Under the pieces are notes generated by a model, which was not told the DNA's origin, ran no database searches, and worked only from the letters and a program-made list of their open reading frames with translations. From the NCBI GenBank assembly GCA_958296065.1, contig CATQHX010000006.1, positions 23,531 to 87,530 of the forward strand: 64,000 nucleotides of DNA. Reading direction: 5' to 3'. This stretch comes from Vicinamibacterales bacterium (GTDB lineage: Bacteria; Acidobacteriota; Vicinamibacteria; Vicinamibacterales; UBA8438). A program made the position numbers and the translations under genes. Shown in pieces: positions 28,666 through 51,680 of this stretch. Within the stretch, counting starts at the first letter, position 1. Each line of letters begins with the position of its first letter.

Positions 28666-28704
28666 AGCCCATCGAATCACAGCTGCATTCGAGGTACCCA
28701 AATC

Positions 28705-29871
28705 ATGTGGCCGCAGGACGACGAGCACGACGCACTCTTGATTGACCGGGCCGCGGCGGCAGCAGTGCCCTCCGACGGTGCCATTGGTGAGTGGGCCCGC
28801 GGCAGGCGAGTGTTCATCTCAAGCGTGATGGCTGGGCTCGGCGAAGAGCGGGCGGCCGCAGCCGAAGCGGCCGTAGCGTCGGGTGCTCGGCCGATAATGT
28901 TCGAGAACTTCGGCGGACGTGATGCGGACCCATTGAACGCCTACCTGGGAGAGGTCGAGACCAGCGAGATCTACGTCGGCATTCTCGGCCAGCGCTACGG
29001 CAGACCTCTGCCCACTCGCTTCTCTGCGACCCACACGGAGTTCCGGCACGCTGAGCAGCAAGGACTGCGGGTAGCAGTTTGGGCGCTGGACACTCAAGAG
29101 CGCGAGGGCCCACAGCAAGCATTCCTGGATGAGGTCCGCGTGTTTCACGTCGTTCCCTCCTTCCACTCCCCCGCAGATCTGCGCGGCCAAATGAGCGCGC
29201 GCCTTCGCGACATCGCGGCCGAGGATCTCGCCCCGTGGACGAAGCTGGGCTTCATCGTGTTCCGAGCCAGCGAGGTCACACATGCCGGGGCGGAGATTGC
29301 CGTGACGGCGCGCGTGCACAGCGACGACGTGGCACACGCTCTCGAGGCCATGGCCTCCAATAATTTCAGTACCGGAGAACATCTGTTTACGTGGGCCGGC
29401 CGCTGCCGGACGGTTCGAGTGGCCGACGTCCAGAGCACCACGACCTCGGCACGTTCCACGTCGGTCCGCCTGCAGTTGGACGTCCTCGAGGAACAGCGCA
29501 ACCCCTTGTACGAGGTCACGGTAAACGGGTACACACCGGATGATCTGACCGATGCGGCGCTTCGCGTCGCGTTGTATGGCGAGCCCCACCCACTGGCCGG
29601 AGAAGACATGGGATTCATGGCCGAGATGCAGGATCCCCTTCAGCCTCTACGCGATGCCCAAGTACCGGACGAGATCGTACGATCTCTGGCCGAACTGATG
29701 CTCGTCGACCAGTTGGTCGGCTCGGGCCGGGCTGCAAGAGTGACGCACTTTCGGCTCGGCACCTCGGTGGGAGGCCGGCGCAGGCTGCAACTAACCTGGG
29801 AACCGCCGCAGAGGTACGTGAACGAACGGAATAGATCAAGACACTCGGTAGACGGACAGGTTCGACTGTAG
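28705..29871 (+). CDS. DUF4062 (TIR-like) domain protein with an unassigned ~250-aa C-terminal region
   Basis: RRVFISSVMAGLGEERAAAAEAAVASGARPIMFENFGG...EIYVGILGQRYG matches the DUF4062 consensus pattern (vFISS..DL.eER...i...g..p..fE.f..........D.yvgi.G.rYG). Confidence 0.65.
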   Translation: MWPQDDEHDALLIDRAAAAAVPSDGAIGEWARGRRVFISSVMAGLGEERAAAAEAAVASGARPIMFENFGGRDADPLNAYLGEVETSEIYVGILGQRYGRPLPTRFSATHTEFRHAEQQGLRVAVWALDTQEREGPQQAFLDEVRVFHVVPSFHSPADLRGQMSARLRDIAAEDLAPWTKLGFIVFRASEVTHAGAEIAVTARVHSDDVAHALEAMASNNFSTGEHLFTWAGRCRTVRVADVQSTTTSARSTSVRLQLDVLEEQRNPLYEVTVNGYTPDDLTDAALRVALYGEPHPLAGEDMGFMAEMQDPLQPLRDAQVPDEIVRSLAELMLVDQLVGSGRAARVTHFRLGTSVGGRRRLQLTWEPPQRYVNERNRSRHSVDGQVRL

Positions 29872-30769: not shown

Positions 30770-30865
30770 ACATCTTGCGACTCGCTGAACCCGGCTTGCT
30801 CCAACGATCGGTTACTCTCTCCGCTTGGCTCCACCCGACGAAGTCCCCGCGCGCATTCACCCCGG

Positions 30866-32310
30866 GGGAATGTCCCGGAGGCTGTTGAACTTGAGGTGAA
30901 GCGGGTGGCGACTCCTCGCCCCTGTTCTGTGGTAGGACAGGGGTGCATTCAAGAAGGAGGAGAGCCACCCATGGCGAAGCATGACAGGCGGAAGAAGTCC
31001 GGCCAACCCCCCAGCTCGCAACCCGTCACGATTCAGGTGCCGCTGCCGGTGCTCGGCGTGATCAACGGTGTCCGGGAAGCGTTCCATAGCTTGTGCATCG
31101 CGACCGGTCTGCAGGTCCTGGAGGCGATGATGGAGGCGGATCGGGAAGCCCTGTGTGGCGCGAAGGGGCGCCACCAGGTCGAGCGGCCCGCGTGGCGCGG
31201 CGGGAGTGTCGACAGCCAGGTGACGCTCGGCGGCCGGCAGGTCGAGGTGCCGCGGCTGCGTGTGCGCAGCGCCGAGGGTGAAGTCCCGCTGGCGAGCTTC
31301 CAGTGGGCGGCATCGACGGACCCGCTGGACGAGCACACGCTGGCCGCGGTCGCCGCTGGGGTGTCGACGCGGCGTTACGCGGGCACGTTGGACCCGGTAC
31401 CGGCCGAGGTGAACGAGCGGGCGACGTCGAGCAGCGCGGTGTCGCGGCGGTTCGTGGCGCTGTCGACCAAGCGCCTGCATGCGTTTCTCTCCCGTGCGTT
31501 GGGCGAGCTGGATCTGCGAGTGGTCTGCATCGACGGCAAGGTGTTCCGGGACCATTGCATGGTGATCGCGTTGGGCTTCGACACCCAGGGCCGGAAACAC
31601 GTGCTGGGCCTGCGCGAAGGCGCCACCGAGACGGCTGCCGTCACGACCGGTCTGCTCAGCGACCTGGTGACGCGCGGACTGCCGACCGACCGGACGTTGC
31701 TGTTCGTCGTCGATGGTGCGGCGGGGCTGCGCCGGGCCATCACCGACGTGTTCGGTTCTCGGGGCGTGGTGCAACGTTGCCAAGTGCACAAGTGCAGGAA
31801 CGTGCTCGGCCATCTGCCCGAGCGGCTGCACGCGTCTGTCCGCAAGGCGTTGCGGGATGCGTGGGATCTCGATTCGGCGGACCGCGCGACGCGGGTGCTG
31901 AAGCGGCTGGCCGGGTCTCTGGAACGCGACCATCCCGGCGCCGCAGCGTCCATCCGGGAGGGTCTCGAGGAGACGCTGACCGTGCAGCGCCTCGGCCTGA
32001 CGGGGGCGTTGCAGCGTACGCTGCGCACGACGAACATCATCGAGAACCTCAACGGCAGCGTCGAGCGCTACACACGCAACGTCAAGCGGTGGCGTGGCGG
32101 TCAGATGATTCAACGCTGGGTGGCGAGCGCGCTGGTGGAGGCGGAACCGCGCTTCCGGCGGGTCCGGGGCTACCGCGACCTGCAGTACCTGGTGGGCGCC
32201 CTCGACGCGCTGGCCCCGCCCGACGACGTAGTTGCTGAAGTGGCGTAACATTGGCGGAGGAAACAGGGAGTCTGCCACTCGCAAAGTTCAACAGCGAACG
32301 GGACAACCCC
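30866..32310 (+). mobile_element. IS256-family insertion sequence, about 1445 bp, intact
   Basis: Left end gggaatgtcccggaggctgttgaactt versus the reverse complement of the right end ggggttgtcccgttcgctgttgaactt (shared GTCCCG...GCTGTTGAACTT). Flanked by the 8-bp direct repeat caccccgg (30858-30865 and 32311-32318). Confidence 0.8.
30971..32248 (+). CDS. IS256-family (Mutator-like) transposase
   Basis: MAKHDRRKK...VCIDGKVFRDHCMVIALGFDTQGRKHVLGL...LFVVDGAAGLRRAI...QRCQVHKCRNV...RTTNIIENLN is a typical IS256 DDE layout. The upstream part of ORF 30236..32248 is antisense to the HEPN gene and was excluded. Confidence 0.85.
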   Translation: MAKHDRRKKSGQPPSSQPVTIQVPLPVLGVINGVREAFHSLCIATGLQVLEAMMEADREALCGAKGRHQVERPAWRGGSVDSQVTLGGRQVEVPRLRVRSAEGEVPLASFQWAASTDPLDEHTLAAVAAGVSTRRYAGTLDPVPAEVNERATSSSAVSRRFVALSTKRLHAFLSRALGELDLRVVCIDGKVFRDHCMVIALGFDTQGRKHVLGLREGATETAAVTTGLLSDLVTRGLPTDRTLLFVVDGAAGLRRAITDVFGSRGVVQRCQVHKCRNVLGHLPERLHASVRKALRDAWDLDSADRATRVLKRLAGSLERDHPGAAASIREGLEETLTVQRLGLTGALQRTLRTTNIIENLNGSVERYTRNVKRWRGGQMIQRWVASALVEAEPRFRRVRGYRDLQYLVGALDALAPPDDVVAEVA

Positions 32311-32380
32311 CACCCCGGAGTCGGAGAGAACCCGGCCGGCCGCCGAACGAGCGTCCGATAGCCCCATCCTGACCGAACGA

Positions 32381-35300
32381 TCAGTCCAGCGAGTGCAGCC
32401 TGACGGGCGAGGGCCGTTGCTTTCCCTCGCAGAAGTAGAGCGCCCTGAACCGATCCATTTGCTTGATCTTGTCGATCAGACTGCGTTCCTGCCGCGCCGT
32501 AGAGACATTGCGGACGAGCGCCTTCGCGTCTGTTTCGGTCAGGCGCAGCACCAGGTAGTTGGCGACCGCTGAGAACACCGACGCGTCGAAGTCCCTGGCT
32601 TCCTGGGACGCCAGCACCAGCGAGATGCCGTACTTTCGACACTCCTTTGCCATCGTCGGGATCAACTTCAGCCCGGCTGCTCGGTGGGCCTCATCGAAGA
32701 TCAGCGCATGTGTGATCCCTTCTTGAATGCCTCGCCGAAACATGTCCTTGTAGAGGCCGTAGAACACGAGCGAGGCGAAGGCTCGCTGCAACGCGTCGTT
32801 TTGGGTCGTGTGGATGCGAACGACAGTGGGCCGGTCACTCGTCCATAGACTGTCGCGCGTCTCTCCGAGGTCGAAGAAACCGTAGTCCTCGAGTTCAGTC
32901 AGACGCGCCAGCAACGTACGCAATCCACGGTCCGGCTTCGGTTCGGCGCGCAGAATCTCCACGAAACGACCGAACTCCGGTTCCCGCGCCCCTACCTCCG
33001 ACCCCGTCCATCCCGCTTCGCCGAAGCTCTCCTTGATCGCACGGCGGATGCTCTCGCATTGCAGATCGCCAAGCTCGGGGAAGATCGCACCGAAGATGTC
33101 CCGCAACGACCCGGCCACATCGAGATACGCCCGCGCCGACTCGGGGTTCGTCACCCTCAGCGGATTGAATCCCAGTCCATCGAAGTCGATGAACCGCACG
33201 GACTTGACCAGGTCAACAAGCCGCTCGTCGATGTCCTGGTGATAGGAAAAAATGATCGGGTGGACGCCCGCGGTCACCATCTGCCGGCACAGGTTCAGCA
33301 GGCAGGTCGTCTTTCCCATACCGGGCAGTCCAGCGATGAGCAGATGCGGGTTGCCCTTTATGGTCAAGGGCCACTGCACGTCGCCGCCGGTGAGGCTGTC
33401 CACGCCCAGCGCGATAGCAGGCACTGGCGTCGGGATGTCAGCGGTCGCGTTGCGGTCCGGAACAGTCTCGCCGCCCGTCCGCTTCGTGGGCTCTTCGGGA
33501 TCCGTCGTTCCGGCGCCGGGGGCTCCATTGCTGCCGGACACCTCCCGGTCAACCCTGCCCGGATCTGTCGTCGTCGCGCCGGACTTGCTTCCGTCTGCAC
33601 CCTGCCCTTCTTCGTCAGGGCTCGGTACGGCCCCGACGGAGGCCCGGTCCCCTCCATCCACCGCCGGCGACACGCTACGGGAGGGCCGACTCTCCTCCCA
33701 CCCGTTCTCCCCGGACGCCCCGGTTCCGGGCGGGCTTCCTCCCGCCGCAGGGTCCGGCTGGAAGCGGAAATCGGCATCGGGCAACCGACCGGGACCGAAC
33801 AGGAAGATCCGCGCACCCCATCCCGGGGGCGAAATCTCCAGCGGCTCCAGCCCCGCGTACTCCGGACAGAACACCCAGCCACGGTGGCTGTCCGGCTCGG
33901 GCTGGATGGCATAGTATCCGCCCCGCTCGACCATGCGATCCAGCTCGGCGACGATCTCCCGGTAGCGTTCCGTCGACAACCCATGCCGGTGCGCCTTGTC
34001 CGCGTAGAAGCGCAGCACCCGGGCCAGCTTGGCGCGCCGCACCGCACGGAAAGCGGAGTACACACTCTCGTGGCCGTACCACTCGTGCCAGCGCGAGCGG
34101 AGTGCGACGGTCTGTTCTTGTACCCTGCGCAGCAGGTCCGGCGCGCGGGCCTGGCGCAGATGCCGACGGTGCTTCACTTCGATGAACCGGAAGGCGAGTC
34201 CCCGGCGCGGCGTCGTCGAGACGTGGATCAGGTCCGGACGCGTCAGCCGCTCCTCGCCATCGGCACCGTTGTTCCCTTCGTCCCGTAGCGGAGGCAGCAG
34301 GTCCCGCACGTCGTCCACCGGCACGAGGAAGCCGCGGTCGAGTGGCGCCCAACAGGCGTCGTCTTCCGCCGCCCGTCGGCAGTTGGCGTGCGCGATCGCC
34401 AGCGCTATCAACTCCGAGGTCGGGGCGACGTTGCCGGTGAGACGGATGGCGAGCCGCCCGCTCAGCGACTTGAGGTGCTCCAGGAGGAACTCGGCGTTCC
34501 GTCGCGTGCGGCTGAGTCCCATTCGCACCAGCGCGTTGTCAAGCAGGTCGTGCACCTCATCCAGATTGCTGGTCGACGTGATCAGTTGCAGGCAGCCGAG
34601 GTCCTCGCGCTCCGGCACGCAGTCGATGACGTACGCATCGTAGATGTCGCGGTTGTCTCGCGGCGAGTCGAAGTACTCGATGCCGGCATTGCGGTCGAGG
34701 GTGACCACCCAGTCGCACAGTCGGTGCAGCTCCCGGATGTTGTCGGCCTTCTCGGCCAGGATCGACGTGCGCAACACCGGCGAGCCGTGGCCCGCGTTGT
34801 CAGTCGCCTGCGGCATGGCCCAGGGCCAACGCCATCCCGCGCGCTGCGTCGGCGCGACTTCGCGCATGGCGATATGCCGGGCAACCGCGTCCTCGATCTT
34901 TTCGCCCAAGCGGTCCAGCCGCTCGGTGTGCCCCCGCTCCGACGGGTGTTTCTCCCCGCCGCCGGACCGGGGCACGACGCTGCGCCAGGAAGGGGTCGGT
35001 ACGGCCGCGAAGTTGCGCTCGAAGAACGACAGCAGGCCAAATGCCCGGAACGGGGCGGTCTGTGCTGCATCGGTGTCGATCTCCACCCGGGACTCGAAGG
35101 TGTCGAACGCGACGGCAAGGTGGGCCGCGGTCTTCGGGTTGCCGGACTCTTTGCGCGCCCACCGCAACCGGGGCAGAGCGACGCCGCCCGGCAGGCCGAT
35201 AGATTCCAACATCCACCGGTCGTCGGTCGCCAGAACGCCCGCGCCGCTGCGGCGTTTCTCCCGCGCTTCCGCGATGAACCGCCCGGCGATGCCGCGTTGT

Positions 35301-37627
35301 TCCGGCGATGGATACAGCTCGAGGGAGAAGGCCGGCGGCGGCGCCGCTTCGACGTCCGGGCCTTCGGCCGCCTGGCTATCCGAGTCGTCGTCGGCGCCTC
35401 CGTAATGCCGGTGGACACGGCCCAGCGCGCGGGCGATGGTCAGACCGTCGCCGGCTCGAAGAGCGTGCATCCGCAACAGCCGGGACGACTCGTGGCACTC
35501 GACGTACTTGACGATCTCGTTGCCGAGAACCGCCGCGCTCTGCCCGCCGACGGTTGGCGTGGTCTCCGTCGATTCGCTCTCGCCGAGGGCGCAGGCGAGC
35601 ACCGCCACCGCCGCTTTCGGCTCCCGATCGTCATCGGGCACCATGCCCACCGCGTGGAACCCCAACGTGTCCGCGAAGACGAACGCCCCGCCGGCCGGGT
35701 TGGGAAGGAACGCAGGAAACATCGCGCCGTCCAGCCCCCGCAGCTCATCCTGTACCTGCTTGGGCGCTTGCCCCTCGTCGAAGACGGCGTGGAGGAGCAG
35801 ATTGTCGTAGGCCGCCAGCCAGGCGACACGCAGCGGATGGGCCGGCAGCACGATCAGGCCGGTCGTTCGGCCGGACAGCGACTGCACTTCGACCGTGTTG
35901 CAGATTGCGTGTGAGGGGTCGCCGTCGTCGAGCAGCGCCGTCCACGCGAGCAGGTAATCCTTCACGACATCGAAGGACTTCGACTTGTCGTCGTGGACCT
36001 GGCTGACTCCGCCCCCGCCGGCCCGGAACCGTTCCGCCAGCCGCCGGCTGGCCGCGACGGCACGGACCCACCCCGGTCCGTCACCGCTCTCCGCCGGGAC
36101 GAACTCGACAGCCGCCGCCCTTTCTCCCGACGCCCGGACGCGTAGCCGCCAGCGCCCGAGCGCGCCTTGTCGGCTCGTCCAATCGTTCTCCACGTCGCGG
36201 AGCAACGGCGGGCGGAATACCCGGAAGCTCTTGCGCAACCTAGAATCAGGCGGGCGCATCACGACGAAGCCCCTCGCGTCGGCGGTAACACAGGTCGGGT
36301 TCTCCGCGGCCCCGGCCGCGGTCTCTCTACCCGGGAACTCGATGAGCCCTTCGCTGAACGTGCGGACCTTCCGGCCTGCGCCACCAGCCGTCGTCTCCTG
36401 CGGCTCGCCGAAACGGATGACGATCTCCTCGCTCTGCTGCCGCTCGATCTCATCGCGGCCGACGACGGACACCACCACGCGGGCGGTCAGGAGGGCGTCT
36501 TCGCTCAGCGCCGAGAAGTCGTCGTTGCTGAACCGGCACTTCTCCTGCTGGGTGGCGGAGTGGCGGACGTCGCGCGCGGCCAGTTCTTCATCGAGGTCTG
36601 TCAGCACGGCCACGCGGTAGTCGACGGCGTTCTTCTCCAGATCGTCCGGACGGGCCTTCCACCGAACCTCCAGATTCGAGTACTCCTTCGCGGATTGGGG
36701 GTCGGGTTTGAGGACCAGCTCCGGCACCCCCGCTTCGGGCGGTTCCTTCAGTCCCGACCACGCGGCGATCTTCCCGTTCTTGTTGCGCCAGGACGTGAGT
36801 TCGATGGCCTGGATGTCGTCGCTCGGGTGCATCGGGAGGGCTCCGACCCACAGCCGCCGCTGCTCGGCCAGCGCCTGAAGGGCGTCGCGCAACGGTCGGG
36901 TTGCCGCTTCCACGAGAAAGCGCTCGAGTTCACGGCGCTGCTCGCCGGTCGCCGCGATCCGTAGCGACGCAATGCGGGCGGGGACGGTGAGGCCCGCGGC
37001 GGCGACACCGAGCAGGCGATCGACGAACCGGCGCGACGCGGCCAGTTCCGCACCGACGTCTCGGTCGGCCGACGCCGCGACCGGCCATAGACCGAGCAGG
37101 TGCAGGTACTCGCCGGGGTGACGCTGGTACGCGGCGGCGCGGCAGAGAAAGTCGAACTCGGCCCACGGCGAGACGCTGTCGTGCCGCCCCACGCCCTGCG
37201 CCCGGCGGATCGCGCGTTCGGCGTACGCGCGGTGCGCGCTCGACAACCGGCTCGTCACCTCAGCGCCCGCGAGCCGGCCCGCCTCGGTGAACAGTTCGGC
37301 CTCGCCGACTTCGCGCGCGGCGCTGTAGATGCCGTCCATGCCGGCTCCGGCGCGCCCGGTGTCGACCAACAGCAGCGTCGGTTCGCCCTTGATCTCGCGC
37401 AACTCGACGGCGGTGTCTGCGTCGGTAGTTCTTCCGGCCTCGTCCTCCGTGTCCGCAACCCTCAGCACCTGCCACCCCTCCGGCGTGAAGGTCTCATCGG
37501 CGGCCAGGGCCGCCACCACGTCTGGGGTCAGGCACCGCACGAACGCCATCGCGCCCCGCTCGGGCCGGCCGAGCAGGCGCCCGAACGCACGGCCGAGCAG
37601 GGTCCCGTGCAGCGCCGTCCACTCCAC
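32381..37627 (-). CDS. 1748-aa protein with a C-terminal FtsK/HerA/VirB4-type P-loop ATPase; DptH (DndH)-like by architecture
   Basis: Walker A GLPGMGKT (33308-33331), Walker B-like HALIFDEAHR, GISLVLASQ in the last 330 aa. A ~120-aa Gly/Pro/Ser/Asp low-complexity linker precedes them. No motif was recognised in the N-terminal ~1300 aa. The GTG start lies 1 nt after the upstream stop. Confidence 0.8.
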   Translation of the reverse strand: MEWTALHGTLLGRAFGRLLGRPERGAMAFVRCLTPDVVAALAADETFTPEGWQVLRVADTEDEAGRTTDADTAVELREIKGEPTLLLVDTGRAGAGMDGIYSAAREVGEAELFTEAGRLAGAEVTSRLSSAHRAYAERAIRRAQGVGRHDSVSPWAEFDFLCRAAAYQRHPGEYLHLLGLWPVAASADRDVGAELAASRRFVDRLLGVAAAGLTVPARIASLRIAATGEQRRELERFLVEAATRPLRDALQALAEQRRLWVGALPMHPSDDIQAIELTSWRNKNGKIAAWSGLKEPPEAGVPELVLKPDPQSAKEYSNLEVRWKARPDDLEKNAVDYRVAVLTDLDEELAARDVRHSATQQEKCRFSNDDFSALSEDALLTARVVVSVVGRDEIERQQSEEIVIRFGEPQETTAGGAGRKVRTFSEGLIEFPGRETAAGAAENPTCVTADARGFVVMRPPDSRLRKSFRVFRPPLLRDVENDWTSRQGALGRWRLRVRASGERAAAVEFVPAESGDGPGWVRAVAASRRLAERFRAGGGGVSQVHDDKSKSFDVVKDYLLAWTALLDDGDPSHAICNTVEVQSLSGRTTGLIVLPAHPLRVAWLAAYDNLLLHAVFDEGQAPKQVQDELRGLDGAMFPAFLPNPAGGAFVFADTLGFHAVGMVPDDDREPKAAVAVLACALGESESTETTPTVGGQSAAVLGNEIVKYVECHESSRLLRMHALRAGDGLTIARALGRVHRHYGGADDDSDSQAAEGPDVEAAPPPAFSLELYPSPEQRGIAGRFIAEAREKRRSGAGVLATDDRWMLESIGLPGGVALPRLRWARKESGNPKTAAHLAVAFDTFESRVEIDTDAAQTAPFRAFGLLSFFERNFAAVPTPSWRSVVPRSGGGEKHPSERGHTERLDRLGEKIEDAVARHIAMREVAPTQRAGWRWPWAMPQATDNAGHGSPVLRTSILAEKADNIRELHRLCDWVVTLDRNAGIEYFDSPRDNRDIYDAYVIDCVPEREDLGCLQLITSTSNLDEVHDLLDNALVRMGLSRTRRNAEFLLEHLKSLSGRLAIRLTGNVAPTSELIALAIAHANCRRAAEDDACWAPLDRGFLVPVDDVRDLLPPLRDEGNNGADGEERLTRPDLIHVSTTPRRGLAFRFIEVKHRRHLRQARAPDLLRRVQEQTVALRSRWHEWYGHESVYSAFRAVRRAKLARVLRFYADKAHRHGLSTERYREIVAELDRMVERGGYYAIQPEPDSHRGWVFCPEYAGLEPLEISPPGWGARIFLFGPGRLPDADFRFQPDPAAGGSPPGTGASGENGWEESRPSRSVSPAVDGGDRASVGAVPSPDEEGQGADGSKSGATTTDPGRVDREVSGSNGAPGAGTTDPEEPTKRTGGETVPDRNATADIPTPVPAIALGVDSLTGGDVQWPLTIKGNPHLLIAGLPGMGKTTCLLNLCRQMVTAGVHPIIFSYHQDIDERLVDLVKSVRFIDFDGLGFNPLRVTNPESARAYLDVAGSLRDIFGAIFPELGDLQCESIRRAIKESFGEAGWTGSEVGAREPEFGRFVEILRAEPKPDRGLRTLLARLTELEDYGFFDLGETRDSLWTSDRPTVVRIHTTQNDALQRAFASLVFYGLYKDMFRRGIQEGITHALIFDEAHRAAGLKLIPTMAKECRKYGISLVLASQEARDFDASVFSAVANYLVLRLTETDAKALVRNVSTARQERSLIDKIKQMDRFRALYFCEGKQRPSPVRLHSLD

Positions 37628-37628
37628 G

Positions 37629-39449
37629 TCACATCCCTCCTGCGGCTTCGAATCGCCCGGTGAGCCGTTTCATCCGTTCTGCGTCATTGACGCCGACGAG
37701 CAGACCGAGATCGCGCAGGCGCCGCTCCAACGCCGCCCGGTTCCGGCCCAGAACCTCGTTGGAGATAGTCATGCCCGGCGGTGCAGTATCGACGTGGAAC
37801 CCGTAGTCTTCGCGGAGAAAGCCGAGGAACGACACGATGTTGGCGTCGGTACCGCCCGTAGGGCCGGGCAGCAGGTGCAAGTGCACGAGGTAATCGAGCA
37901 CGGAATCGGTGAAGACAATGGCGCGCACGTCGCGGCGCCTGCGTGCTCTCGAGCCCGTGCCGCGGGTCGTCGTGCGCTTGACGGCCAGCCCGTTCGGACG
38001 CCCGACGGCCAGGATGGAATCGACCATCCCGATGAAATTCTTCTGGAAATCGTTCGCTCCCTTCAAGGCCATCAATCCGCTTGCGAGTCGCCAGACAGAG
38101 TGTCGTTGGTCGTCAGCGTCGTCGAGAAGGGTACGGGCCACATCGTCATGGTCCCCCGCCACCTTTTCGGCCAACTTCTCCGCCTTGTCCTCAATGGCGA
38201 AGGCGACGCGCTGCGCCTCGGGGTGTCGGCGGTGGGCGAGATCGCCGAGCAGGTTCAGCCACTCCGTCGCGTATGGCCGCTTCGCGACCTTCTGCAACTT
38301 GATTCGCACACGGGGGCGCGCCTCGTAGTCCAGCAGGCGCAGTCCCATCAGTATGACGGGCACACGTTCCAAGCGCCGCATCAGGTCGTCCATCGACTGC
38401 TCGGCCCGCAGTCGGAGTCTCCGGTCTGCGCCGTTGGAGCAGTCCACGAACAGCGGCGCTGCGCGCTGCGCGTCAAGGTCCGTCACCCTCCCGGTCGCTT
38501 CCCAATGGAACAGCACCTCGACGGTGCTCGTGACGATGGCGGTCAAGCCGAGAGAGATGCACGACTCCAACATGTCCACGAGGGCGTGCCTCGGCGCGGA
38601 ATCGGCGTAGGACCTCACGAAGCGGCGGATGTCATCCGAAAAACGGCGCCCCGCGGCTTCAGCGATGGGACGCTGGTTCGAAATCCGATCCGCGTCTGCT
38701 CCTTGCTTCGGAGTGGGCTTGGGCTTTCTGGGAGCCGTCCGTAGTTGCTGGGCCAGACGAATGGTCAGGAGCTGATCCAGGCCGACAGCATCGTCCTCCT
38801 CGTCGAAGCGATCGGACGCATGATCCGCCAACCATTCGCCGCGGCGCGCAATCCCTTGGCTGAACGCGCGCAAGAGAGGATTGTCCTCGTAGCGGTTGAC
38901 CACCGGGAAGCGCGTCCTGTCTGTCTCCTCAGTCGGCGTGACGTGGTCGCCCGTACGCCGATTCGCGAGCATGGCGACGATCATCTCGGGGACGAAACGC
39001 AAGTTCGCCACACTATAGGGAAGGTCTATCCAGCTCGCCATGTAGTGGGTCGGCGCGACGCGCTGCACCTGCTTGTCCCGGCCGAGCCCGTGCCGGACGT
39101 TCTCCAAGCAGAAGCAGAGCAGGAGGTCGCCGAGAATGGCTTGCTCGACCTCGCCGTCGAACCCGGTCAACTCGTCGGTCTCGGCTAGCTTCCCCGCGAT
39201 CCGCTGCACGGTCGTCCGCCGGCGCTTCTGGGCCGGCGTCCCGGCCGCGGGACCGTACGTGCGGAGGAAGTTCCCGGCTCCCCGCCGGTGCCCGTAGCGG
39301 AACATGTAGAAGACCGCCGGCAATACCGCCGAGAGCTCGAAATCGAGAAGCGTCATCGGCAGAACCTTGTCGTAGCTGCCGGTCCAGATCTCCTCCACCA
39401 AGTCGGGTGACAGTGCGTCTTCGACGATCTTGCGATCGGCATGCGCCAT
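37629..39449 (-). CDS. 606-aa protein of unknown function; DptG (DndG)-like by position and size only
   Basis: Clean ORF with non-shadow composition. It starts 11 nt after the upstream stop and ends 1 nt before the downstream GTG. No catalytic motif recognised. Confidence 0.7.
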   Translation of the reverse strand: MAHADRKIVEDALSPDLVEEIWTGSYDKVLPMTLLDFELSAVLPAVFYMFRYGHRRGAGNFLRTYGPAAGTPAQKRRRTTVQRIAGKLAETDELTGFDGEVEQAILGDLLLCFCLENVRHGLGRDKQVQRVAPTHYMASWIDLPYSVANLRFVPEMIVAMLANRRTGDHVTPTEETDRTRFPVVNRYEDNPLLRAFSQGIARRGEWLADHASDRFDEEDDAVGLDQLLTIRLAQQLRTAPRKPKPTPKQGADADRISNQRPIAEAAGRRFSDDIRRFVRSYADSAPRHALVDMLESCISLGLTAIVTSTVEVLFHWEATGRVTDLDAQRAAPLFVDCSNGADRRLRLRAEQSMDDLMRRLERVPVILMGLRLLDYEARPRVRIKLQKVAKRPYATEWLNLLGDLAHRRHPEAQRVAFAIEDKAEKLAEKVAGDHDDVARTLLDDADDQRHSVWRLASGLMALKGANDFQKNFIGMVDSILAVGRPNGLAVKRTTTRGTGSRARRRRDVRAIVFTDSVLDYLVHLHLLPGPTGGTDANIVSFLGFLREDYGFHVDTAPPGMTISNEVLGRNRAALERRLRDLGLLVGVNDAERMKRLTGRFEAAGGM

Positions 39450-39460
39450 GCGTGTTCACC

Positions 39461-42400
39461 TCAGGCGAGCAGTCGAATGACGAGCCGCTGCGGTCCATCG
39501 CCTAAACCGCTCTCCGCGGCGATCTCGTGAATGGCGTCTTCACGCATCGGGTTCCAGGCCAGCAATCGCCGGTCGTCCTCGCGCTCGAGGCGCTGCACGA
39601 AGATCGACAGGTGCGCGAATGTGTCATCGGTCGAGGCGTCGCCCAACTGGTATCCCTCGCTCAGTTCCAGCAGCAGGTGGAACAGATCCGCACCGAGGCG
39701 AAGGCGCTCCTCGCCGCGTCCGTCCGCATAGCGGTAGACGAGAGTCGCCTGTCGGTGCAGCCGGTCAACGCCGGCGGGTGCGGACGGAAGGTCCGCTTCG
39801 AGATGGAAGCGATCCACGGGCTTCTCGATCCAGAACGCCGTCTCCGTCGGGGTCCGGGGCGTGATCCGCAGAGGAACGACGCCAAGCCGGCCGTACGCAT
39901 TCGGTGGCAGCGACGCCAAGCGCGCGATGCCGGCACAGAGGGCCCGGCACGCCGCTTCCCGCTCCCCATCGTCTATCGGCAATCTGCGGAAACGGCGGAG
40001 ATGACGGCCGTGGGCCAGTTCGAGCGCATTCGGATCCCCGGTAAGCGACTCGATGTCCCGTTCGAGCCACTCGAAGTACGCGCGTCGGCGCGCCGAGGGG
40101 AGGTTCAATTCCGGATATCCTGCCACGCCCCGGCGGGTGCCGGCCCGCGTCGGGCGCACCAAGTGTCGATCGATCCGCGGATGGGCGTCGAGCGCCGGGT
40201 CGAAGCGCGCCAAGTCCCCGAGCACGGCCCCCTGGCGCCCAGGGGACTGCGGGTCGAATGCCCGGTCCCAGTAGGGCAGCGGTGCCGGCCCGGCCTCGGA
40301 CGCCGCATCGGGTGCGGGATACGGACCGAAGTCCGGATCCCAGTAGGCTGGCGCTGGGTGCCGGTGCGCCGCGACGGCACCCTCGTGGTAATCGTCGCAG
40401 AAGTGGACCCCGAACAGGATATAGACGAGCGCGGCGCGCAACCCGCGCACGGTGACGTGCGTCTCGCCGCGCAAGTGGACTGCCTGGAGCGCTTCGAACA
40501 GGCGCCCGCGGGCGCGCGACCGCGCCTCGGTGGTGGCGCTACCGGGAAGGCCGGCGGGGCCGAACAAACGATTGGCTTTGAACACGTCGCAGCGATCCTG
40601 GGCCGAACAGGTCGCGCACAGCTCCCAGATCTTCGATGCTCGGGTGCCGCCGTACAGGTGGTTCACCAGACGTTCCAGGAAATCGGTCTCAATGCCGGTC
40701 CCGTTGGCGGTCACGCCGCCGACGAGCGACCGCTGATTGAGGTTGACGAACCGGATGTGCGCATCGGGAACCGACCGCGGGGCGGCGCCTTCGGCAACGT
40801 CGGCGACGTCTTCAGCAACGCCGGCCGCGTCACCGCCGACCCCGCCTGCGCTCTCGTCGTCCTCGTCCCTCGCGGCGGCCGGGGCACGACAGGTCCACCG
40901 ATCCTGCTGAACCCTCTGAAGTGCCTCGTACAGCGCCCGCGTGAGCGCGGTTTCGCGTTCGCGCCCTTCGACCCGCTCGATCCACTCCAGCAGACGTCCG
41001 TCGTTGATGGCCAACAGATGCGCAATGTCTTCTGCCGGCGGCCCGTCCCGGAACGGCGCCAGAAACTCGTCGAGCAGGTCGTCGGCCGAACGCCCCCGCC
41101 AGGACGCCGAACCGTCCAGGTTCAGCCGCACGCGCAACCCGTCGTCGGTCTTCCCCTCCAGCACCCGCTCGGACGACGCGAGCCGTTCCAGGCCGAACTC
41201 TCTGGCGAGATGCTGGAGCAGAGCCGTCTTGCCGTCGCCGGCGTTGCCGCATAGGACGACGAGCCGAACGCGCCGCGCCCGCACGTCGTCGTGCAGCGCC
41301 GCCTCCAGGGCCGTCTTGACGTACGTCTCCATGGCGAAGGCGCTGTCGAGCCCCCGCGTTTCCTGGTTCCCCCACCGCGAGCCCGGATACGACTGCAGCA
41401 GTCCCCTCAACCACTCCACCCGCTGCTCGCGGCGTACGACCGGCGCATCGGGCGCCTCGACCGTCGCGGGTTCTTCTGCAGACGAAGGGGGGACGGGCAC
41501 TGGCGACGGCTCCGGAAGCGGCCGGGGTTCCGTTACCGACGGAGCGGATACAGGCTCCGGTCCTGCTGCCGACGACTCGGGCCCCAATGGGGTCGGCGGC
41601 GAGCCCCCCGGAACGGGCGCCACGGTCGGGGGCGAGACGATCGGGGGAACCGCCAGCGCCTTCAGCGCCTCGGCTGCCGACTGGAACCGCTGGGCCGGGA
41701 GTGGGTGGGTGGCATGGTCGAGGAACGCCGCCACCGTTGGATACTCCGCGCGCTGCTCGGCGTCTACAGCTTCCCAGTTCAGACCGCGGTCCTTCGCCAG
41801 CACGCCATCGTGGCGAAACGGCTCGTGCTCGAACATCACGTGAAAAAAACTAGCCGCCAGCGCATACAGATCGTCCGAGGGCGACGCCGCCGCACCCGCC
41901 CGGTGAGACGGCGCGCTGTAGAGCTCGGTGCCCGGCGCGGCGACCGGTTCGTCGATCCGTCCGACGAAGTCGTAATCGGTGAGCACGAGGTCGCGCCCGG
42001 ACACGATCAGGTTGCCGGGGCTGACGTCGCCGTGGATGAGACCGTTGCGGTGAAGCACGTCGAGGGCCTCGCACATCGACCGCAGCCAGAAGAGCGTCAG
42101 CGCACCGGCGGAGGTCTCGTCAAGGTCGTCCACAAGCAGCGGAAGGATCCCCACAAAATCGCGAAGCGGTGACCCTTCAACCCAGGTCATGAGCGCCGTG
42201 AACTCGTTCTCACGCCACTCCGACGCCACTTCGAAGATCCCGGAAACGGCCTGATGCTGCAGATGTGATCGTGCCAGCCGGTAGGCGCCCACGGCGCGGC
42301 GTCCCGCCTCCTCGTCATGACACACCTTGGCGACGTAGGTCCCCAGCTCCTCGTTCCTGGTACGGTCGAGTTGCACCACCTTGAACGTCGTGCCAACCCC

Positions 42401-43858
42401 GCCACAGCCGAGGCGTTCGACCACCCGGTAGTGGCCGCCACGGAACGGGACGATCTGATCTTCGGTCCAGAACCGTGCCGGCGGAGGCGGCGGCGCGGGC
42501 GGAGACTCCCCCAGCAGTACAGACAGGCGCGCATCGAGCACGGACGGCTCGCTGCGCTGCACCGGATCGTCGGCCATGGCCGAAGCCAGTACTTCGAGAG
42601 CTTGGCGGCTCGTCTCATCGTCCCGGTCTTCGAACAGAACGCGCAAGCTCGCACACAGCGCGTAGGTGTCCGAGCGGGCGTCGGCCGCGTGCAGTCCTTG
42701 GTCGCGCACTTCCGGCGCCGTCGACGATGGCCACTCCCCTGACGACGGCCGCGCCGACCCCACGCTCCGTTCCGACGGGATCCTGGACAGCTCGAAGCCG
42801 GTGAAGATCGGCGTGTTGTCGTGTCGGACGAGAACCGTCCCCGGGGTGAGTTTGCGGTGCAGGATCGGCGCGCCGTCCACGGTCGCCTCATGCAACTCCC
42901 CCAACGCGCCCAGCGCAGCCCTGGCGAAGGCCAGCCGCGCCGAGGTGTCCCACGTCGAATCCGACTTACGCCTCTCGATGGAAGGAGCCAGCGGGTCGGT
43001 GACAGTGAAGAAGTACATCTCGCCCGCGTAGCTGGGCGCCGGCTGCCAAGAATCGAGTACGCGGGGCGCCCAAGCGTGCAATTGCAGCCTGTGCAACGTC
43101 TCGAACTCTCGCATCGCTCGGGTTTCAGCGTGCCCCTCGTCGCTCGCCGACAGGTCGTAGAGGTGCAGGAGCACCTTGTCATGCCGGGTCGCGTGGACAC
43201 CCTGGTATACGCGGTGGAACCGCTCCGACGGGGGCGTGCGGCGCTCGAGGTTGACGTAACCGGCGAACCGCCGCAGGGAACCGTCGAGGGCGACCGCGCT
43301 CTTCGGTTCAAGAAGGCGTCCGAGCCGGGCGACCTGTTGTGGGCGGAGCACCGGCGCCGCGTCAAGATCGACGGCCTCGCGCCACTCCTTCAACGAGCAG
43401 AAGCGCACCCCCCTGACGACTCGGCCGGCCAGTTCCCTTTCGCCCGGCGATTCGCGCGTCAGCAGGATCACGCCGTCCACGCGACCGAGATCCGGTACCG
43501 ACCTGCGGGAAGTGGTTCCGATCTTGCGCGCCTTGTTCGTGACCCGATCCGCCTCCTCGTCCACGCGGTCCGGATGCTCATCGATCCATCGCCGTGACCA
43601 ATGCTTGACCTCGATGACACGTACGCCCGGCGGACCGATGGCGATCATGTCGATCTCGTCCGCCTTGAACTGGTGCGTGACCGACCAAGTGAGGTTGGTC
43701 AGCAGTATCCATTGGTCGTCGCTCGCCCCGAGCGACGACTCTATGCGGCTTCGGAGATGTTCGAACGCCGTGCGTTCGCTCTCGTTGGCGAAGGGCCCGC
43801 AGGCAAAGGAGGTCACGTTCACGTCGCTGTTCCAGCCATGAGAATCGTGGCAGAGCAT
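39461..43858 (-). CDS. fusion protein: NERD domain + degenerate kinase-like domain + Ser/Thr-kinase-like domain + Pro-rich linker + P-loop NTPase region (DptF/DndF-like)
   Basis: NERD: ADEIDMIAIGPPGVRVIEVKHW. Kinase-like 1: ILHRKLTPGTVLV and FTGFE (HRD Asp and DFG lost). Kinase 2: LGCGGVGTTF, YVAKV, LIHGDVSPGNLIV, LTDYDF. P-loop CGNAGDGKT (41224-41250). Start moved to ATG 43858 (AGAGGA upstream). The ORF-track N-terminal 179 aa are Arg/Cys-rich and overlap gene 44070..44630. Confidence 0.8.
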   Translation of the reverse strand: MLCHDSHGWNSDVNVTSFACGPFANESERTAFEHLRSRIESSLGASDDQWILLTNLTWSVTHQFKADEIDMIAIGPPGVRVIEVKHWSRRWIDEHPDRVDEEADRVTNKARKIGTTSRRSVPDLGRVDGVILLTRESPGERELAGRVVRGVRFCSLKEWREAVDLDAAPVLRPQQVARLGRLLEPKSAVALDGSLRRFAGYVNLERRTPPSERFHRVYQGVHATRHDKVLLHLYDLSASDEGHAETRAMREFETLHRLQLHAWAPRVLDSWQPAPSYAGEMYFFTVTDPLAPSIERRKSDSTWDTSARLAFARAALGALGELHEATVDGAPILHRKLTPGTVLVRHDNTPIFTGFELSRIPSERSVGSARPSSGEWPSSTAPEVRDQGLHAADARSDTYALCASLRVLFEDRDDETSRQALEVLASAMADDPVQRSEPSVLDARLSVLLGESPPAPPPPPARFWTEDQIVPFRGGHYRVVERLGCGGVGTTFKVVQLDRTRNEELGTYVAKVCHDEEAGRRAVGAYRLARSHLQHQAVSGIFEVASEWRENEFTALMTWVEGSPLRDFVGILPLLVDDLDETSAGALTLFWLRSMCEALDVLHRNGLIHGDVSPGNLIVSGRDLVLTDYDFVGRIDEPVAAPGTELYSAPSHRAGAAASPSDDLYALAASFFHVMFEHEPFRHDGVLAKDRGLNWEAVDAEQRAEYPTVAAFLDHATHPLPAQRFQSAAEALKALAVPPIVSPPTVAPVPGGSPPTPLGPESSAAGPEPVSAPSVTEPRPLPEPSPVPVPPSSAEEPATVEAPDAPVVRREQRVEWLRGLLQSYPGSRWGNQETRGLDSAFAMETYVKTALEAALHDDVRARRVRLVVLCGNAGDGKTALLQHLAREFGLERLASSERVLEGKTDDGLRVRLNLDGSASWRGRSADDLLDEFLAPFRDGPPAEDIAHLLAINDGRLLEWIERVEGRERETALTRALYEALQRVQQDRWTCRAPAAARDEDDESAGGVGGDAAGVAEDVADVAEGAAPRSVPDAHIRFVNLNQRSLVGGVTANGTGIETDFLERLVNHLYGGTRASKIWELCATCSAQDRCDVFKANRLFGPAGLPGSATTEARSRARGRLFEALQAVHLRGETHVTVRGLRAALVYILFGVHFCDDYHEGAVAAHRHPAPAYWDPDFGPYPAPDAASEAGPAPLPYWDRAFDPQSPGRQGAVLGDLARFDPALDAHPRIDRHLVRPTRAGTRRGVAGYPELNLPSARRRAYFEWLERDIESLTGDPNALELAHGRHLRRFRRLPIDDGEREAACRALCAGIARLASLPPNAYGRLGVVPLRITPRTPTETAFWIEKPVDRFHLEADLPSAPAGVDRLHRQATLVYRYADGRGEERLRLGADLFHLLLELSEGYQLGDASTDDTFAHLSIFVQRLEREDDRRLLAWNPMREDAIHEIAAESGLGDGPQRLVIRLLA

Positions 43859-44069
43859 ACAACGTCCTCTGCGTCCGGCAGAGCCGACTGTCAGATCTCG
43901 TTGAACATCGTGTACCGCGGGCGTTCCCGTCCAGGAGCCCATTGAGGACCGTCGTCGGCACGCTGCGCCGCCCAGATGCCCGGCCGAGCGAGCCCCGGAC
44001 GAAGAAGACCGCCAGAACCGCTGCTGGCTGACACCGCCGGCGAACCGCGTCAACGGCAGCGAGCTCGGT

Positions 44070-45129: not shown

Positions 45130-47847
45130 TCACTCGACGCGCAACGCCGACATGGGCTGGACGCGCGTGGCCCGGCGCGCCGGCAGCCAGCTCGCCAACA
45201 GGCAGATCGAGACCAGCAACGCCGACACGCCGCCGAAGACGGCCGGGTCGAGCGGGCTCGTCTCGAACAGGATCGCCTGAAGGTGCCGGGTCAGGGCCAG
45301 CGCCGCTCCGATGCCCAAGGCGGAACCGATTCCCGCGAGACCGCCCGCTTCCAGAAGCACCAGTCGGCGCACATCGCTGACCTGCGCTCCAACGGCCATG
45401 CGGATGGCGATCTCGCGGTGCCGGCGCGCCACCGTGTAGGAAACGACGCCGTAGAGGCCGACGGTTCCGAGCAGCAGTGCGAGCACGGCCGCGACCACGA
45501 TCAGGACCATGACGAACGCTCGTTGCTGGCGGGCGCGCGCGACCACGGTCTCCAGCGTGTCGACGTCGGAGACGGGGAGCGTAGGGTCGAGTTCTCGCAC
45601 GGCCTCTCGCACGGCGCCGGAGAGCCCGGGGGCGTTGGAAGCGCGCACCACATATCTCATCGCCGGCATGATGCTCGTGCTCGCCTCGTCGTCGCGCGTA
45701 GTGCGCACCACCTGCGGGTAGTACGCCATCGGCGGCGGATCGATGTGGAGTCCAATCTCGTGGACGTCGTCCACGACCCCGATGACGCGGAACCAGCCGT
45801 CACCGTCCACGCGCGGCATCCCGCCCGATCGGATTCCCTGTCCGAGAGCGTTCCCTCCCGGCCACGCTTGCCGCGCGAACGAACGTGACACGATGACGGC
45901 GCGCTCTCCGCGTTCCTCGTCGAGCGGGTCGAAGTCTCGGCCGTCGACAAGATCGATGCGCATGGCGTCGAAGTAGCCCGGTGCGATCTGCTTCCATCGG
46001 AGCACCCGCGGCACGTCGACCTCGGCCAGCGCTCCGCGCTCGAAACGATGATCCGAGGCGCGGGGGAAGAACGCCAGTGGAATCCCGTTCGTTGCCGCTG
46101 CTCCCACGACCCCGGGCAGGCCGCGCAGGCGCTCGAGCAGGGCGCGCTGGAAGTTGAGCTGCGCAGCCGGCTCGTAGGCGCGCTCGGGGAGCGCCACCGA
46201 AAAGGTCAGCGCATCGACGGGGTCGAATCCGGGGTCGACGGCCACCAGCTTCTGGAAAGACCGCGCCGCCAGCCCGGCGCCGATCAGTAGCACGAGGGCG
46301 AGCGCAATCTGTGCCGTGACCAGCCCGCGTCGCGCACTCAGCCGCTTGCGTCCGTCGGTGGCGCCGCGCGCGCCCGCGGTCAGGCCGGCGGATGCCGCGA
46401 CCGCCGTCGTGCGCCACGCGGGAAGCAATCCGAGCAGCAACCCAGCAAGAACCGAGACTGCCACGCCGAAGGCCAACACCGAGCTGTCAACCGAGACCTC
46501 CTGCAGGCGCGGCAGTTCCTGAGGGCCCCAGCGCACCAGCAGCCGCACGGCCAGCAGCGAGATTGGAACCGAGACGAGCCCGCCCGCCAGACCGAGCGCC
46601 ATGCTCTCGAGGAAGACCGATCCCGCCAGATGCCCGCGCCGTGCGCCGAGCGCGAACCGGATCGCGAACTCGTTGTGGCGCGCATCGGACTTGACCAGGA
46701 ACAGGTTGGCCACGTTGGCGCACGCGATCAGCAACAGAAACCCAACGGCGGCGAGCAGGATCCACAACGTCGCACCGATGTCGCCGACCAGGTGCTCGCG
46801 AGCAGGAACGATGACCGGCCTGAAGCCGGCTACCGCCAGCGTCGGCGCGGCGTTCTGGTCCGGAAAGACGGTACGCAGGTCCGACGTCATGGCGCCGAAC
46901 TCCGCCTCGGCCTGCTCCAGCGTGAACCCGTCCGCGACGCGGGCTACCCCCATGTGAAAGAAGTTGCCGAGTTGCACGGTCTCGCGGTCGAGCCGCAGCG
47001 GTCGCCAGAGATCGATGTTCGGCCACAGGAAGGTGAAACTTGGCGGCATCACCCCCACGACCTCCGTTCGGGAGCCGTCGACATCGACGAGGCGGCCGAC
47101 CACGTCCGGATCGGCCCCGAACCGGGTTCTCCACAGCGCGTCGCTGAGCAGGACCACTGGCTCTGCGCCCTCTCTCGCGTCTCGCTGGCTGAAGGCCCGA
47201 CCGATACGCGGCGGCGTCCGGAGCATGTCGAAGAACGACGCCGTGACATCCGAGGTCAGCACGCGTTGCGGGTTCTCCGCGTCGGTGAAGCTCGCGCTGC
47301 CCATCTGAATCGCCGTCACGCCGTCGAGCGCACGGCTCTCATCGGCGTAGAGGAAATAGAGCGGGCCGGAGATTCTCTCGCTGATGCCACCCCGGCTCCC
47401 GCCGAACCCCGGGGCGGCGTACTTGAGCACCACCAGCCGATCGGCGTCGGGGAACGGCAGCGGACGCAGCAGCACCGCGTTGACGATGGTGAAGACGGTG
47501 ACGCTGGCGCCGATGCCGAGAGCGACGGTCAGCACGGCGGCCCCCGTGAAGAGCGGATTGCGCACCAGCGATCGGAAGCACCGTCTGGACTCACGGGCCA
47601 CCGATCCGACCCATGCGCTGAGCCTGACGTCCCGCACCTGCTCGGTCACCTGGTCGATCCCGCCCAGCTGCAGGCGGGCGGCGCGCCGCGCCGCATGCGG
47701 CGACATCCCCTCCGCGATCTTCTGCGCGGCCAGCATGTTCAGGTGGTCGTCGAGTTCCTCTCTGAGCTCCTGCTCGACTTGGTCGCGACGGAACAGACCG
47801 CGCAGAAAGTGGCGGCATCGGGTCCACAGCGTGGCGAAGAAAGGCAT
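45130..47847 (-). CDS. ADOP-family duplicated FtsX/MacB-type permease (1 of 5)
   Basis: 905 aa. N-terminal helix extension, FTGAAVLTVALGIGASV, two FtsX-like TM blocks (ACANVANLFLVKS...; RRHREIAIRMAVGAQ...), C-terminal ARRATRVQPMSALRVE. Confidence 0.85.
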   Translation of the reverse strand: MPFFATLWTRCRHFLRGLFRRDQVEQELREELDDHLNMLAAQKIAEGMSPHAARRAARLQLGGIDQVTEQVRDVRLSAWVGSVARESRRCFRSLVRNPLFTGAAVLTVALGIGASVTVFTIVNAVLLRPLPFPDADRLVVLKYAAPGFGGSRGGISERISGPLYFLYADESRALDGVTAIQMGSASFTDAENPQRVLTSDVTASFFDMLRTPPRIGRAFSQRDAREGAEPVVLLSDALWRTRFGADPDVVGRLVDVDGSRTEVVGVMPPSFTFLWPNIDLWRPLRLDRETVQLGNFFHMGVARVADGFTLEQAEAEFGAMTSDLRTVFPDQNAAPTLAVAGFRPVIVPAREHLVGDIGATLWILLAAVGFLLLIACANVANLFLVKSDARHNEFAIRFALGARRGHLAGSVFLESMALGLAGGLVSVPISLLAVRLLVRWGPQELPRLQEVSVDSSVLAFGVAVSVLAGLLLGLLPAWRTTAVAASAGLTAGARGATDGRKRLSARRGLVTAQIALALVLLIGAGLAARSFQKLVAVDPGFDPVDALTFSVALPERAYEPAAQLNFQRALLERLRGLPGVVGAAATNGIPLAFFPRASDHRFERGALAEVDVPRVLRWKQIAPGYFDAMRIDLVDGRDFDPLDEERGERAVIVSRSFARQAWPGGNALGQGIRSGGMPRVDGDGWFRVIGVVDDVHEIGLHIDPPPMAYYPQVVRTTRDDEASTSIMPAMRYVVRASNAPGLSGAVREAVRELDPTLPVSDVDTLETVVARARQQRAFVMVLIVVAAVLALLLGTVGLYGVVSYTVARRHREIAIRMAVGAQVSDVRRLVLLEAGGLAGIGSALGIGAALALTRHLQAILFETSPLDPAVFGGVSALLVSICLLASWLPARRATRVQPMSALRVE

Positions 47848-47856
47848 CTCGACCTC

Positions 47857-49584: not shown

Positions 49585-49623
49585 CCTCCAGTCTGGAAGT
49601 CCAACCTGATAGAGGGGTGGACC

Positions 49624-51651: not shown

Positions 51652-51680
51652 CGGAAGCCCTCCTCTCGGTTACCGTTTGC

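Follow-up and report, generated by a model that had tools for sequence, protein, structure and literature searches.

A probable mobile defence cassette of the DndFGH superfamily with a PglW-like head and no linked modification module in a Vicinamibacterales genome

DndFGH has been argued to be a standalone counter-invader system, and both Dnd modules occur together in just 316 of 5228 taxa (Rakesh, Aravind & Krishnan, NAR 2024, PMC10853773). In the same survey the F, G and H genes are invariably found together and co-directional. The DndF core is a derived P-loop kinase with a canonical Walker A motif, a Walker B Asn, an enlarged helical lid bearing an Arg and a C-terminal domain. A Zn insert is present in some DndF lids, and variants exist in which a winged helix-turn-helix (wHTH) domain, a NERD domain and an inactive plus an active Ser/Thr/Tyr kinase are fused to the DndF core. 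DndG is described as a protein of 450-500 aa with three wHTH domains. DndH (~1700 aa) starts with an inactive SNF2 C-domain, a helix-turn-helix (HTH), two beta-sandwiches, target recognition domains (TRDs) and an inactive Dam-type methylase, followed by an active restriction endonuclease (REase) domain and a C-terminal HerA/FtsK ATPase with a Q sensor-1. DndFGH is reported to have nickase and translocase activity (PMC11662687). A related trio, here called genes A, B and C, lies on the minus strand of a 64,000-nt stretch of DNA (the window) from a Vicinamibacterales bacterium of the Acidobacteriota (assembly GCA_958296065.1, contig CATQHX010000006.1, positions 23,531 to 87,530) and is the subject of this report.

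Two further systems are relevant to this locus. MADS (methylation-associated defence system) confers phage resistance, for which mad6-8 are required (Maestri et al., bioRxiv 10.1101/2023.03.30.534895; Cell Host Microbe 2024). The preprint uses mad6-8 as the mandatory signature of its detection model, reports PglW, SspF and DndF matches on mad6, and relates Mad7 to the DndG structure 7EXX with an HHpred probability of 99.5%. PglW belongs to BREX type 2/Pgl; its head consists of a NERD nuclease, a pseudokinase and an active Ser/Thr kinase according to a 2026 BREX survey (PMC12839542).

The window trio is probably a self-contained mobile defence cassette of the DndFGH superfamily. It would represent the variant with a PglW-type head on its F subunit, a variant that is equally the MAD6-MAD7-MAD8 core of MADS, and no modification module is linked to it. 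Judged from sequence comparison, genes A to C are homologous to MAD6-8, and genes A and C also to DptF and DptH. The three genes and their predicted domains are as follows (positions count from the first letter of the window).

32381..43913, minus strand: whole mobile cassette, three genes and a 5′ leader of ~50-90 nt, delimited by blastn against nine other Vicinamibacterales genomes
39461..43858, minus strand: gene A, 1465 aa from ATG at 43858, MAD6-like and PglW-like
43574..43780, minus strand: predicted NERD (PD-(D/E)xK) nuclease domain of gene A, D70/E83/K85 in the 1465-aa numbering (Pfam PF08378, E 3.4e-8)
42473..43225, minus strand: putative pseudokinase (inactive kinase-like domain) of gene A, from sequence reading and conservation
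41651..42439, minus strand: Hanks-type Ser/Thr kinase of gene A, active by its motifs (G-loop, K511, H609-G-D611, N616, D628-Y-D630; Pfam Pkinase)
41399..41626, minus strand: Pro-rich linker of gene A, poorly conserved
39464..41410, minus strand: predicted DndF/SspF-type core and C-terminal domain of gene A (PADLOC, BLASTP, hhalign)
37629..39449, minus strand: gene B, 606 aa, MAD7 family, mostly helical, probable distant DptG homologue
32381..37627, minus strand: gene C, 1748 aa, GTG start, stop at 32381, DptH/MAD8-like large subunit
34148..34255, minus strand: putative PD-(D/E)xK restriction-endonuclease motif of gene C, D1132/E1150/K1152, from sequence reading
32384..33418, minus strand: predicted HerA/FtsK-type ATPase of gene C, Walker A GLPGMGKT, Walker B FDEAH, sensor-1 Q in ASQ

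The genes are tightly coupled. An 11-nt gap, GGTGAACACGC (39450-39460), separates the TGA of gene A from the ATG of gene B at 39449, and a single base lies between the TGA of gene B (37631-37629) and the gene C GTG at 37627. The three co-directional ORFs (open reading frames), their junctions and the motifs quoted from them are all found where an earlier reading of the DNA letters (the original prediction) had placed them. AGAGGA, a Shine-Dalgarno-like sequence, lies 6 nt upstream of the gene A ATG at 43858; a GTG at 43822, giving 1453 aa, is a possible alternative start because homologues begin with MNVTSF or MKVIHF. No promoter or terminator signal above chance was found in a scan. The G+C content of the window is 59-73% and long antisense ORFs are plentiful. 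Genes A to C are considered real and not chance ORFs because more than 1000 relatives of gene A occur in databases, over 120 of them full-length clusters at 57% identity or more, and the order of the trio is conserved; gene B has 1298 database relatives. By these sequence criteria the locus is a real and intact three-gene cassette of a putative anti-phage type.

Gene A is predicted to combine a NERD nuclease, a pseudokinase, an active Ser/Thr kinase and a DndF/SspF-type P-loop core. The Pfam NERD match spans residues 27-95, with the D..EVK motif at 43598-43657; across 66 sequences the D, E and K of this motif are conserved at 98%. The first kinase-like domain is read as a pseudokinase because the VAIK Lys is substituted by His and HRD by HRK, and the DFG Asp is absent; the APE motif is retained. 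Residues 19-424 align with positions 6-412 of the NCBIfam MADS kinase model MAD6 (E 5e-45). The second kinase domain matches Pfam Pkinase over residues 477-685 (E 1.6e-17) and PknA/PknB in the PDB (5e-12). Its G-loop (42377-42409), YVAK (42323-42337) and HGD (42011-42034) motifs are 95-100% conserved across the homologue alignment. Beyond the linker, the DndF-type core carries the Walker A sequence LCGNAGDGKTA (41222-41254), a Walker B motif with Asn in AINDGRL (40991-41011), a CxxCx5C Zn-type insert, CATCSAQDRC (40589-40618), and a lid Arg in VTVRGLR (40436-40456), all of them 100% conserved. This P-loop region is recognised by the PADLOC models for SspF (1.5e-11) and DndF (2e-6), and gene A aligns with Priestia DptF by BLASTP (3e-11). 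Comparison of the gene A family with a five-sequence DptF family by hhalign gives 99.1% (E 1.6e-18) and pairs GNAGDGKT with GsxGdGKS, INDG with aiNxG and TVRGLR with ltxRal. The DptF, DptG and DptH families used here were built from annotated Priestia, Aliivibrio, Levilactobacillus and Natronorubrum proteins, with Pseudoalteromonas added for DptF only.

The predicted gene C product combines a PD-(D/E)xK nuclease with a HerA/FtsK motor and can be aligned with both DptH and MAD8. The RPD...FIEVK motif is intact at 34169-34240 and its residues are 95-97% conserved. GLPGMGKT lies at 33308-33331 and IFDEAH at 32684-32701; Walker A, Walker B and ASQ are 100% conserved. The last 340 residues match PADLOC mad8 (3e-16) and DndH (8e-15) as well as HerA models, and in the PDB the C-terminus matches the DptH crystal fragment 7ES4 and HerA. 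It also weakly matches TraC/VirB4 and CedB. By hhalign, the gene C family aligns with the DptH family over residues 947-1731 (99.6%, E 5.6e-24) and with MAD8 end-to-end (E 2e-29). Residues 581-1217 match MAD8 (E 3e-23), which itself matches DptH over the same region. The [SDN]PP[FYW] methylase motif is absent from gene C, as would be expected if this protein has no active methylase.

Gene B matches the MAD7 model NF047733 over nearly its full length (E 2.4e-34), and the MAD7 family PF26611 is assigned in precomputed Pfam data to all listed gene B homologues. The gene B family aligns with MAD7 by hhalign at 99.2% (E 7e-20). Six DptG sequences, taken from annotated plasmids since a homologue search with Priestia DptG returned only three proteins, align weakly with it (59-79% in local hhalign, E 1e-4 to 1.6e-5; 95% in global mode). 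The alignment includes a shared FReD block and C-terminal LVH...G.yVD...SDSG/NDAE blocks. The DptG HMM (hidden Markov model) matches neither gene B nor 35 of its relatives, and a gene B family profile HMM finds no PDB sequence at E <= 10. An AlphaFold2 (AF2) model built from a diverse alignment is mostly helical, with a mean predicted local distance difference test (pLDDT) score of 91 and a predicted template modelling (pTM) score of 0.93; an earlier model from a shallow alignment (61-88% identity) had a pLDDT of 49.7 and was discarded.

The original prediction fared well for genes A and C. It had assigned NERD and kinase-like domains, a PglW-like head and a DptF-like C-terminus to gene A, all of which the matches above and the published PglW domain order bear out. 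Its DptH-like reading of gene C with a FtsK/HerA end also holds, and the intact PD-(D/E)xK motif is an addition to it. Gene B had been described as lacking any recognisable motif, which is incorrect as it belongs to the MAD7 family. Among the profile searches that had been suggested, those with Pfam NERD and Pkinase gave matches and those with the curated Dpt models stayed below cut-off. The structural comparison suggested for gene B gave a confident model and no significant match in the PDB or BFVD.

MADS is the closest described system. The reference used for comparison is an eight-gene operon on a Piscinibacter gummiphilus plasmid, all eight products of which pass the curated NCBIfam cut-offs for MAD1-MAD8. 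Its MAD6-MAD7-MAD8 proteins occur in the same order as genes A, B and C and align with them end-to-end; identity is only ~23-26%. Piscinibacter MAD6 is a protein of 1391 aa with the same architecture as gene A. It matches NCBIfam PglW (E 7e-65), its C-terminal half aligns with DptF across the whole core (E 5e-18), and the gene A family aligns with it end-to-end (hhalign E 3e-59). In the 1391-aa and 1858-aa Piscinibacter proteins, only the first 612 and 200 residues are spanned by the respective NCBIfam models for MAD6 and MAD8, so annotation that relies on these models misses the DndF-like core and DptH-like body. The window differs from MADS in that MAD1-5 (HTH, N6 methylase, ATPase, DUF4276 and S subunit) are not beside the trio, either here or in most relatives. 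At the level of sequence, the closest named relatives of the three proteins are MAD6, MAD7 and MAD8, and not canonical DptFGH.

The trio nonetheless shares with DndFGH the F-G-H order and co-directional arrangement. Gene A has the canonical Walker A, Walker B Asn, lid Arg and Zn insert of the DndF core, while gene C (1748 aa) has a DndH-type REase and a HerA/FtsK ATPase with Q sensor. As in most of the taxa of PMC10853773, there is no linkage to dndABCDE. In contrast to DndG as described, gene B is larger and mostly helical. Conservation also differs. Canonical DndF and DndH are described as having fast-evolving domains, whereas the window trio is uniformly conserved, at ~0.5-0.85 per 50-aa block across genes A to C except for three to four linkers (66-83 sequences from many phyla). 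In this alignment all catalytic motifs are 95-100% conserved. For SspFGH, SspF is the top PADLOC match of the gene A P-loop region; SspG and SspH are unmatched and no sspABCD genes were found among the scanned window ORFs. The N-terminal domain order of gene A is identical to that of PglW. Gene A was considered as PglW proper and rejected: in place of the wHTH triad and inactive STAND domain of PglW, its C-terminal half holds a DndF-type P-loop core, and no BREX-specific gene was identified among the scanned window ORFs. Gene A has no match to NCBIfam PglW at E <= 0.01. No PglX, PglZ or BrxC model passes its cut-off among the window ORFs scanned against NCBIfam, which comprise most of the large ones, and BrxD and BrxHI are not among the matches.

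The fused architecture is thus not new, because PMC10853773 lists the same fused DndF and MAD6 of MADS shares it, and the related MADS core has been tested experimentally elsewhere. The original prediction had presented the locus as a candidate undescribed system and a hybrid. The exact fused architecture turned out to be listed as a DndF variant and to be that of MAD6 in a validated system. Nor is the trio a one-off, as its relatives occur in 199 species genomes. The only unusual feature of the locus is the absence of a neighbouring DNA-marking gene. What is added here is modest: the explicit equivalence of MAD6-8 and kinase-fused DndFGH, and the size and uniform conservation of an orphan clade.

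Relatives of gene B were found in 199 genomes in a scan of one genome per species. The best 80 of these loci were analysed and the flanks of 78 compared. Protein identity within the best 80 ranges from 52 to 96%, the top match (96%) being another Vicinamibacterales genome. They come from Acidobacteriota, Latescibacterota, Binatia, Proteobacteria, Thermodesulfobacteriota, Chloroflexota, Spirochaetia, Planctomycetota, Verrucomicrobia, Nitrospirae, Gemmatimonadota and Hydrogenedentota, and the window clade as a whole spans more than 12 phyla. The A-B-C order and strand are held in every fetched locus where the contig permits. There is no conserved neighbour, each flanking gene family being present in at most 7 of the 78 loci. 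DNA homology to the nine other Vicinamibacterales genomes extends from 32381 to ~43865-43913 only, and all flanks differ. These comparisons indicate that the cassette is horizontally mobile and travels as a unit. The trio is also found on two Rhizobium conjugative plasmids, where the RefSeq product names are 'NERD domain-containing protein (kinase family protein)', 'hypothetical protein' and 'ATP-binding protein'. Plasmid pRphaR630c of Rhizobium phaseoli R630 is an example of a carrier in culture. In one Vicinamibacterales relative (L015 16460-18996) the gene C homologue is split by ~2.5 kb of DNA absent from the window.

Modification genes are rare beside the trio and its relatives. No dnd, ssp, PglX or PglZ gene is present among the scanned window ORFs, as the original prediction had held for the neighbourhood of the trio. 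Relatives of the S subunit, MAD4 and MAD5 are absent from the flanks of all 78 loci. A MAD2/HsdM-like or Rhizobium-type methylase ORF occurs within ~5 kb in 7 of the 78, and a MAD2-like one in just 5-6. On one Rhizobium plasmid, gene C is closely followed by two methylase genes. The original prediction also proposed that the kinase head may replace or supplement coupling to DNA phosphorothioation. For most of the related kinase-fused trios on plasmids, the coupling is to modules for N6-adenine methylation, and the more distant ones of Hymenobacter and Chondrinema come after an N6 methylase and an S subunit. On the Chondrinema litorale plasmid (L096 15632-19305) the methylase and S subunit are followed by the kinase-fused DndFGH-like trio and then by a PP2C protein phosphatase and a helicase, which suggests a kinase/phosphatase switch in some variants. 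In an Anaerolineae relative a 136-aa ORF with HsdM_N only abuts gene A (L002/L003 9594-10004), and a MAD2/HsdM-like methylase lies upstream of the trio in six other loci (L082, L074, L030, L023, L031 and L064). These ORFs may be relics of, or transitions to, a methylase-coupled MADS arrangement.

Several observations weigh against assigning the trio to this superfamily as a self-contained defence cassette. The NCBIfam scores are far under the curated cut-offs for MAD6 (154 against 460) and MAD7 (119 against 410), and gene C has no match to the NCBIfam MAD8 model, which is an N-terminal one. The NCBIfam models for DptF, DptG and DptH (TIGR03238, TIGR03236 and TIGR03237) likewise fall short, with 14 bits against 50 for DptF and no match for DptG or DptH. 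Gene C residues 1 to ~580 have no independent significant match and were aligned by low-stringency extension only. The link between gene B and DptG is weak in local hhalign, and Foldseek returned nothing significant for the gene B model in the PDB or BFVD (best E 0.85 and 0.82), although the full-length DptG structure 7EXX was included in the former; neither a triple-wHTH nor a FokI/SspB-like fold of gene B is supported by this comparison. The window clade is known from sequence alone. A predicted nuclease-translocase without a linked protective modification also still needs explaining.

One explanation for the missing partner is that the trio is the restriction half of a system whose self mark is set elsewhere in the genome by a methyltransferase (MAD2-like or another orphan) or a phosphorothioation (PT) system, so that unmarked DNA is attacked as in MADS and Dnd. 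The position of the trios of the Piscinibacter MADS and of the Hymenobacter and Chondrinema plasmids directly behind an N6 methylase and S subunit speaks for such a division of labour, as do the few window-clade loci with an HsdM-like methylase or HsdM_N fragment just upstream of gene A and the two methylases on the Rhizobium plasmid. Yet in 71 of the 78 loci no MAD2/HsdM-like or Rhizobium-type methylase ORF lies within ~5 kb, none has S subunit, MAD4- or MAD5-like genes, and the cassette moves alone between genomes, which is hard to square with reliance on an unlinked partner. The small share of taxa with both Dnd modules (PMC10853773) points the same way, and an unlinked modification partner is considered unlikely, although it is the main rival to the preferred reading.

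The trio could also be the decaying, non-functional remnant of a MADS locus that has lost its methylation module, in keeping with the HsdM_N fragment upstream of gene A in one relative, the insertion of ~2.5 kb in gene C of another and the presence in the window of an IS256 element that ends 70 bp from the gene C stop. Each of the three ORFs is intact, though, the catalytic motifs are 95-100% conserved in more than 60 sequences from many phyla, and conservation is uniform among relatives at 52-96% identity, so that decay is scarcely credible. A role in processing the DNA of the mobile element itself (its segregation, transfer or repair) instead of immunity is very unlikely. HerA/FtsK ATPases do act in DNA pumping and repair, and the weak TraC/VirB4 and CedB matches of the gene C C-terminus would fit such a role; against this, the flanks contain no conserved conjugation, integrase or replication partner, the window cassette lies beside DISARM-like, Septu-like and HNH defence genes, and the homologous MAD6-8 are needed for phage resistance.

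For the preferred reading, a self-contained defence cassette, a mechanism can be proposed by analogy with DndFGH (nickase and translocase) and MADS (mad6-8 needed for phage resistance). The A, B and C proteins would form a single complex in which gene B and the central TRD/inactive-methylase-like part of gene C bind DNA. The HerA/FtsK ring of gene C would translocate the DNA and its PD-(D/E)xK domain would nick or cut DNA of the invader. The P-loop core of gene A would bind nucleotide and gate the complex, while the kinase, with its pseudokinase partner, and the NERD domain may serve as regulatory or back-up, possibly abortive, effectors. More tentatively, and with less than even confidence, the orphan clade may provide modification-independent immunity without an epigenetic self mark, the kinase/pseudokinase head and DndF core sensing infection and licensing the DptH-like nuclease-translocase. 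If true, it would be the first tractable model of self/non-self discrimination by standalone DndFGH-type systems. Protection of a naive host by the clade without self-toxicity would address the question raised by PMC10853773 of how invaders are discriminated without a linked mark and would also reveal the role of the PglW-type kinase head. As a sequence finding alone, the trio is an expected member of a described family. The comparison links two literatures that name one machine differently, as MADS MAD6-8 and as kinase-fused DndFGH, and identifies a large, well conserved clade travelling without a modification module.

The remaining features of the window are the following.

11825-13366: ISNCY-family transposase (E 7.5e-136) at the island's left edge, ~330 bp upstream of the gene for the DISARM-like helicase
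13700-25892, plus strand: DISARM/Dpd-like trio, comprising a 1814-aa DEAD/DEAH helicase, a DrmD-like SNF2 helicase and a 1323-aa Eco57I/N6-type methylase
25424-29871, plus strand: Septu-like PtuA/PtuB pair, then an HNH protein and a DUF4062 protein
30865-32311: IS256-family element with 28-nt imperfect inverted repeats, ending 70 bp from the gene C stop
45130-60341, minus strand: four paralogous ADOP-family duplicated permeases and an acidobacterial-type PadR regulator

No tRNA genes are present in the window, and the ORFs at 47857-51651 between the ADOP permeases have no family match. The permeases and the PadR regulator fit a Vicinamibacterales (Acidobacteriota) origin, which the closest relatives of the trio also suggest. 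The 1814-aa helicase carries a C-terminal MZB domain (DUF1998). The DrmD-like match (E 3.7e-87) is below cut-off, as are the PtuA and PtuB matches (E 1.7e-57 and 9.5e-23), and no DrmC-like (phospholipase D) or separate DrmB-like match was found among the scanned ORFs. The N6-methylase has weak PglX-family matches only. It was considered as a member of the trio and rejected because it is on the opposite strand, four other genes and an IS element lie between it and the trio, and the flanks of all relatives lack it. The cassette and the DISARM-like, Septu-like and HNH genes make up a predicted defence island. The HNH protein weakly resembles a phosphorothioated-DNA-binding restriction endonuclease (E 1.7e-5).

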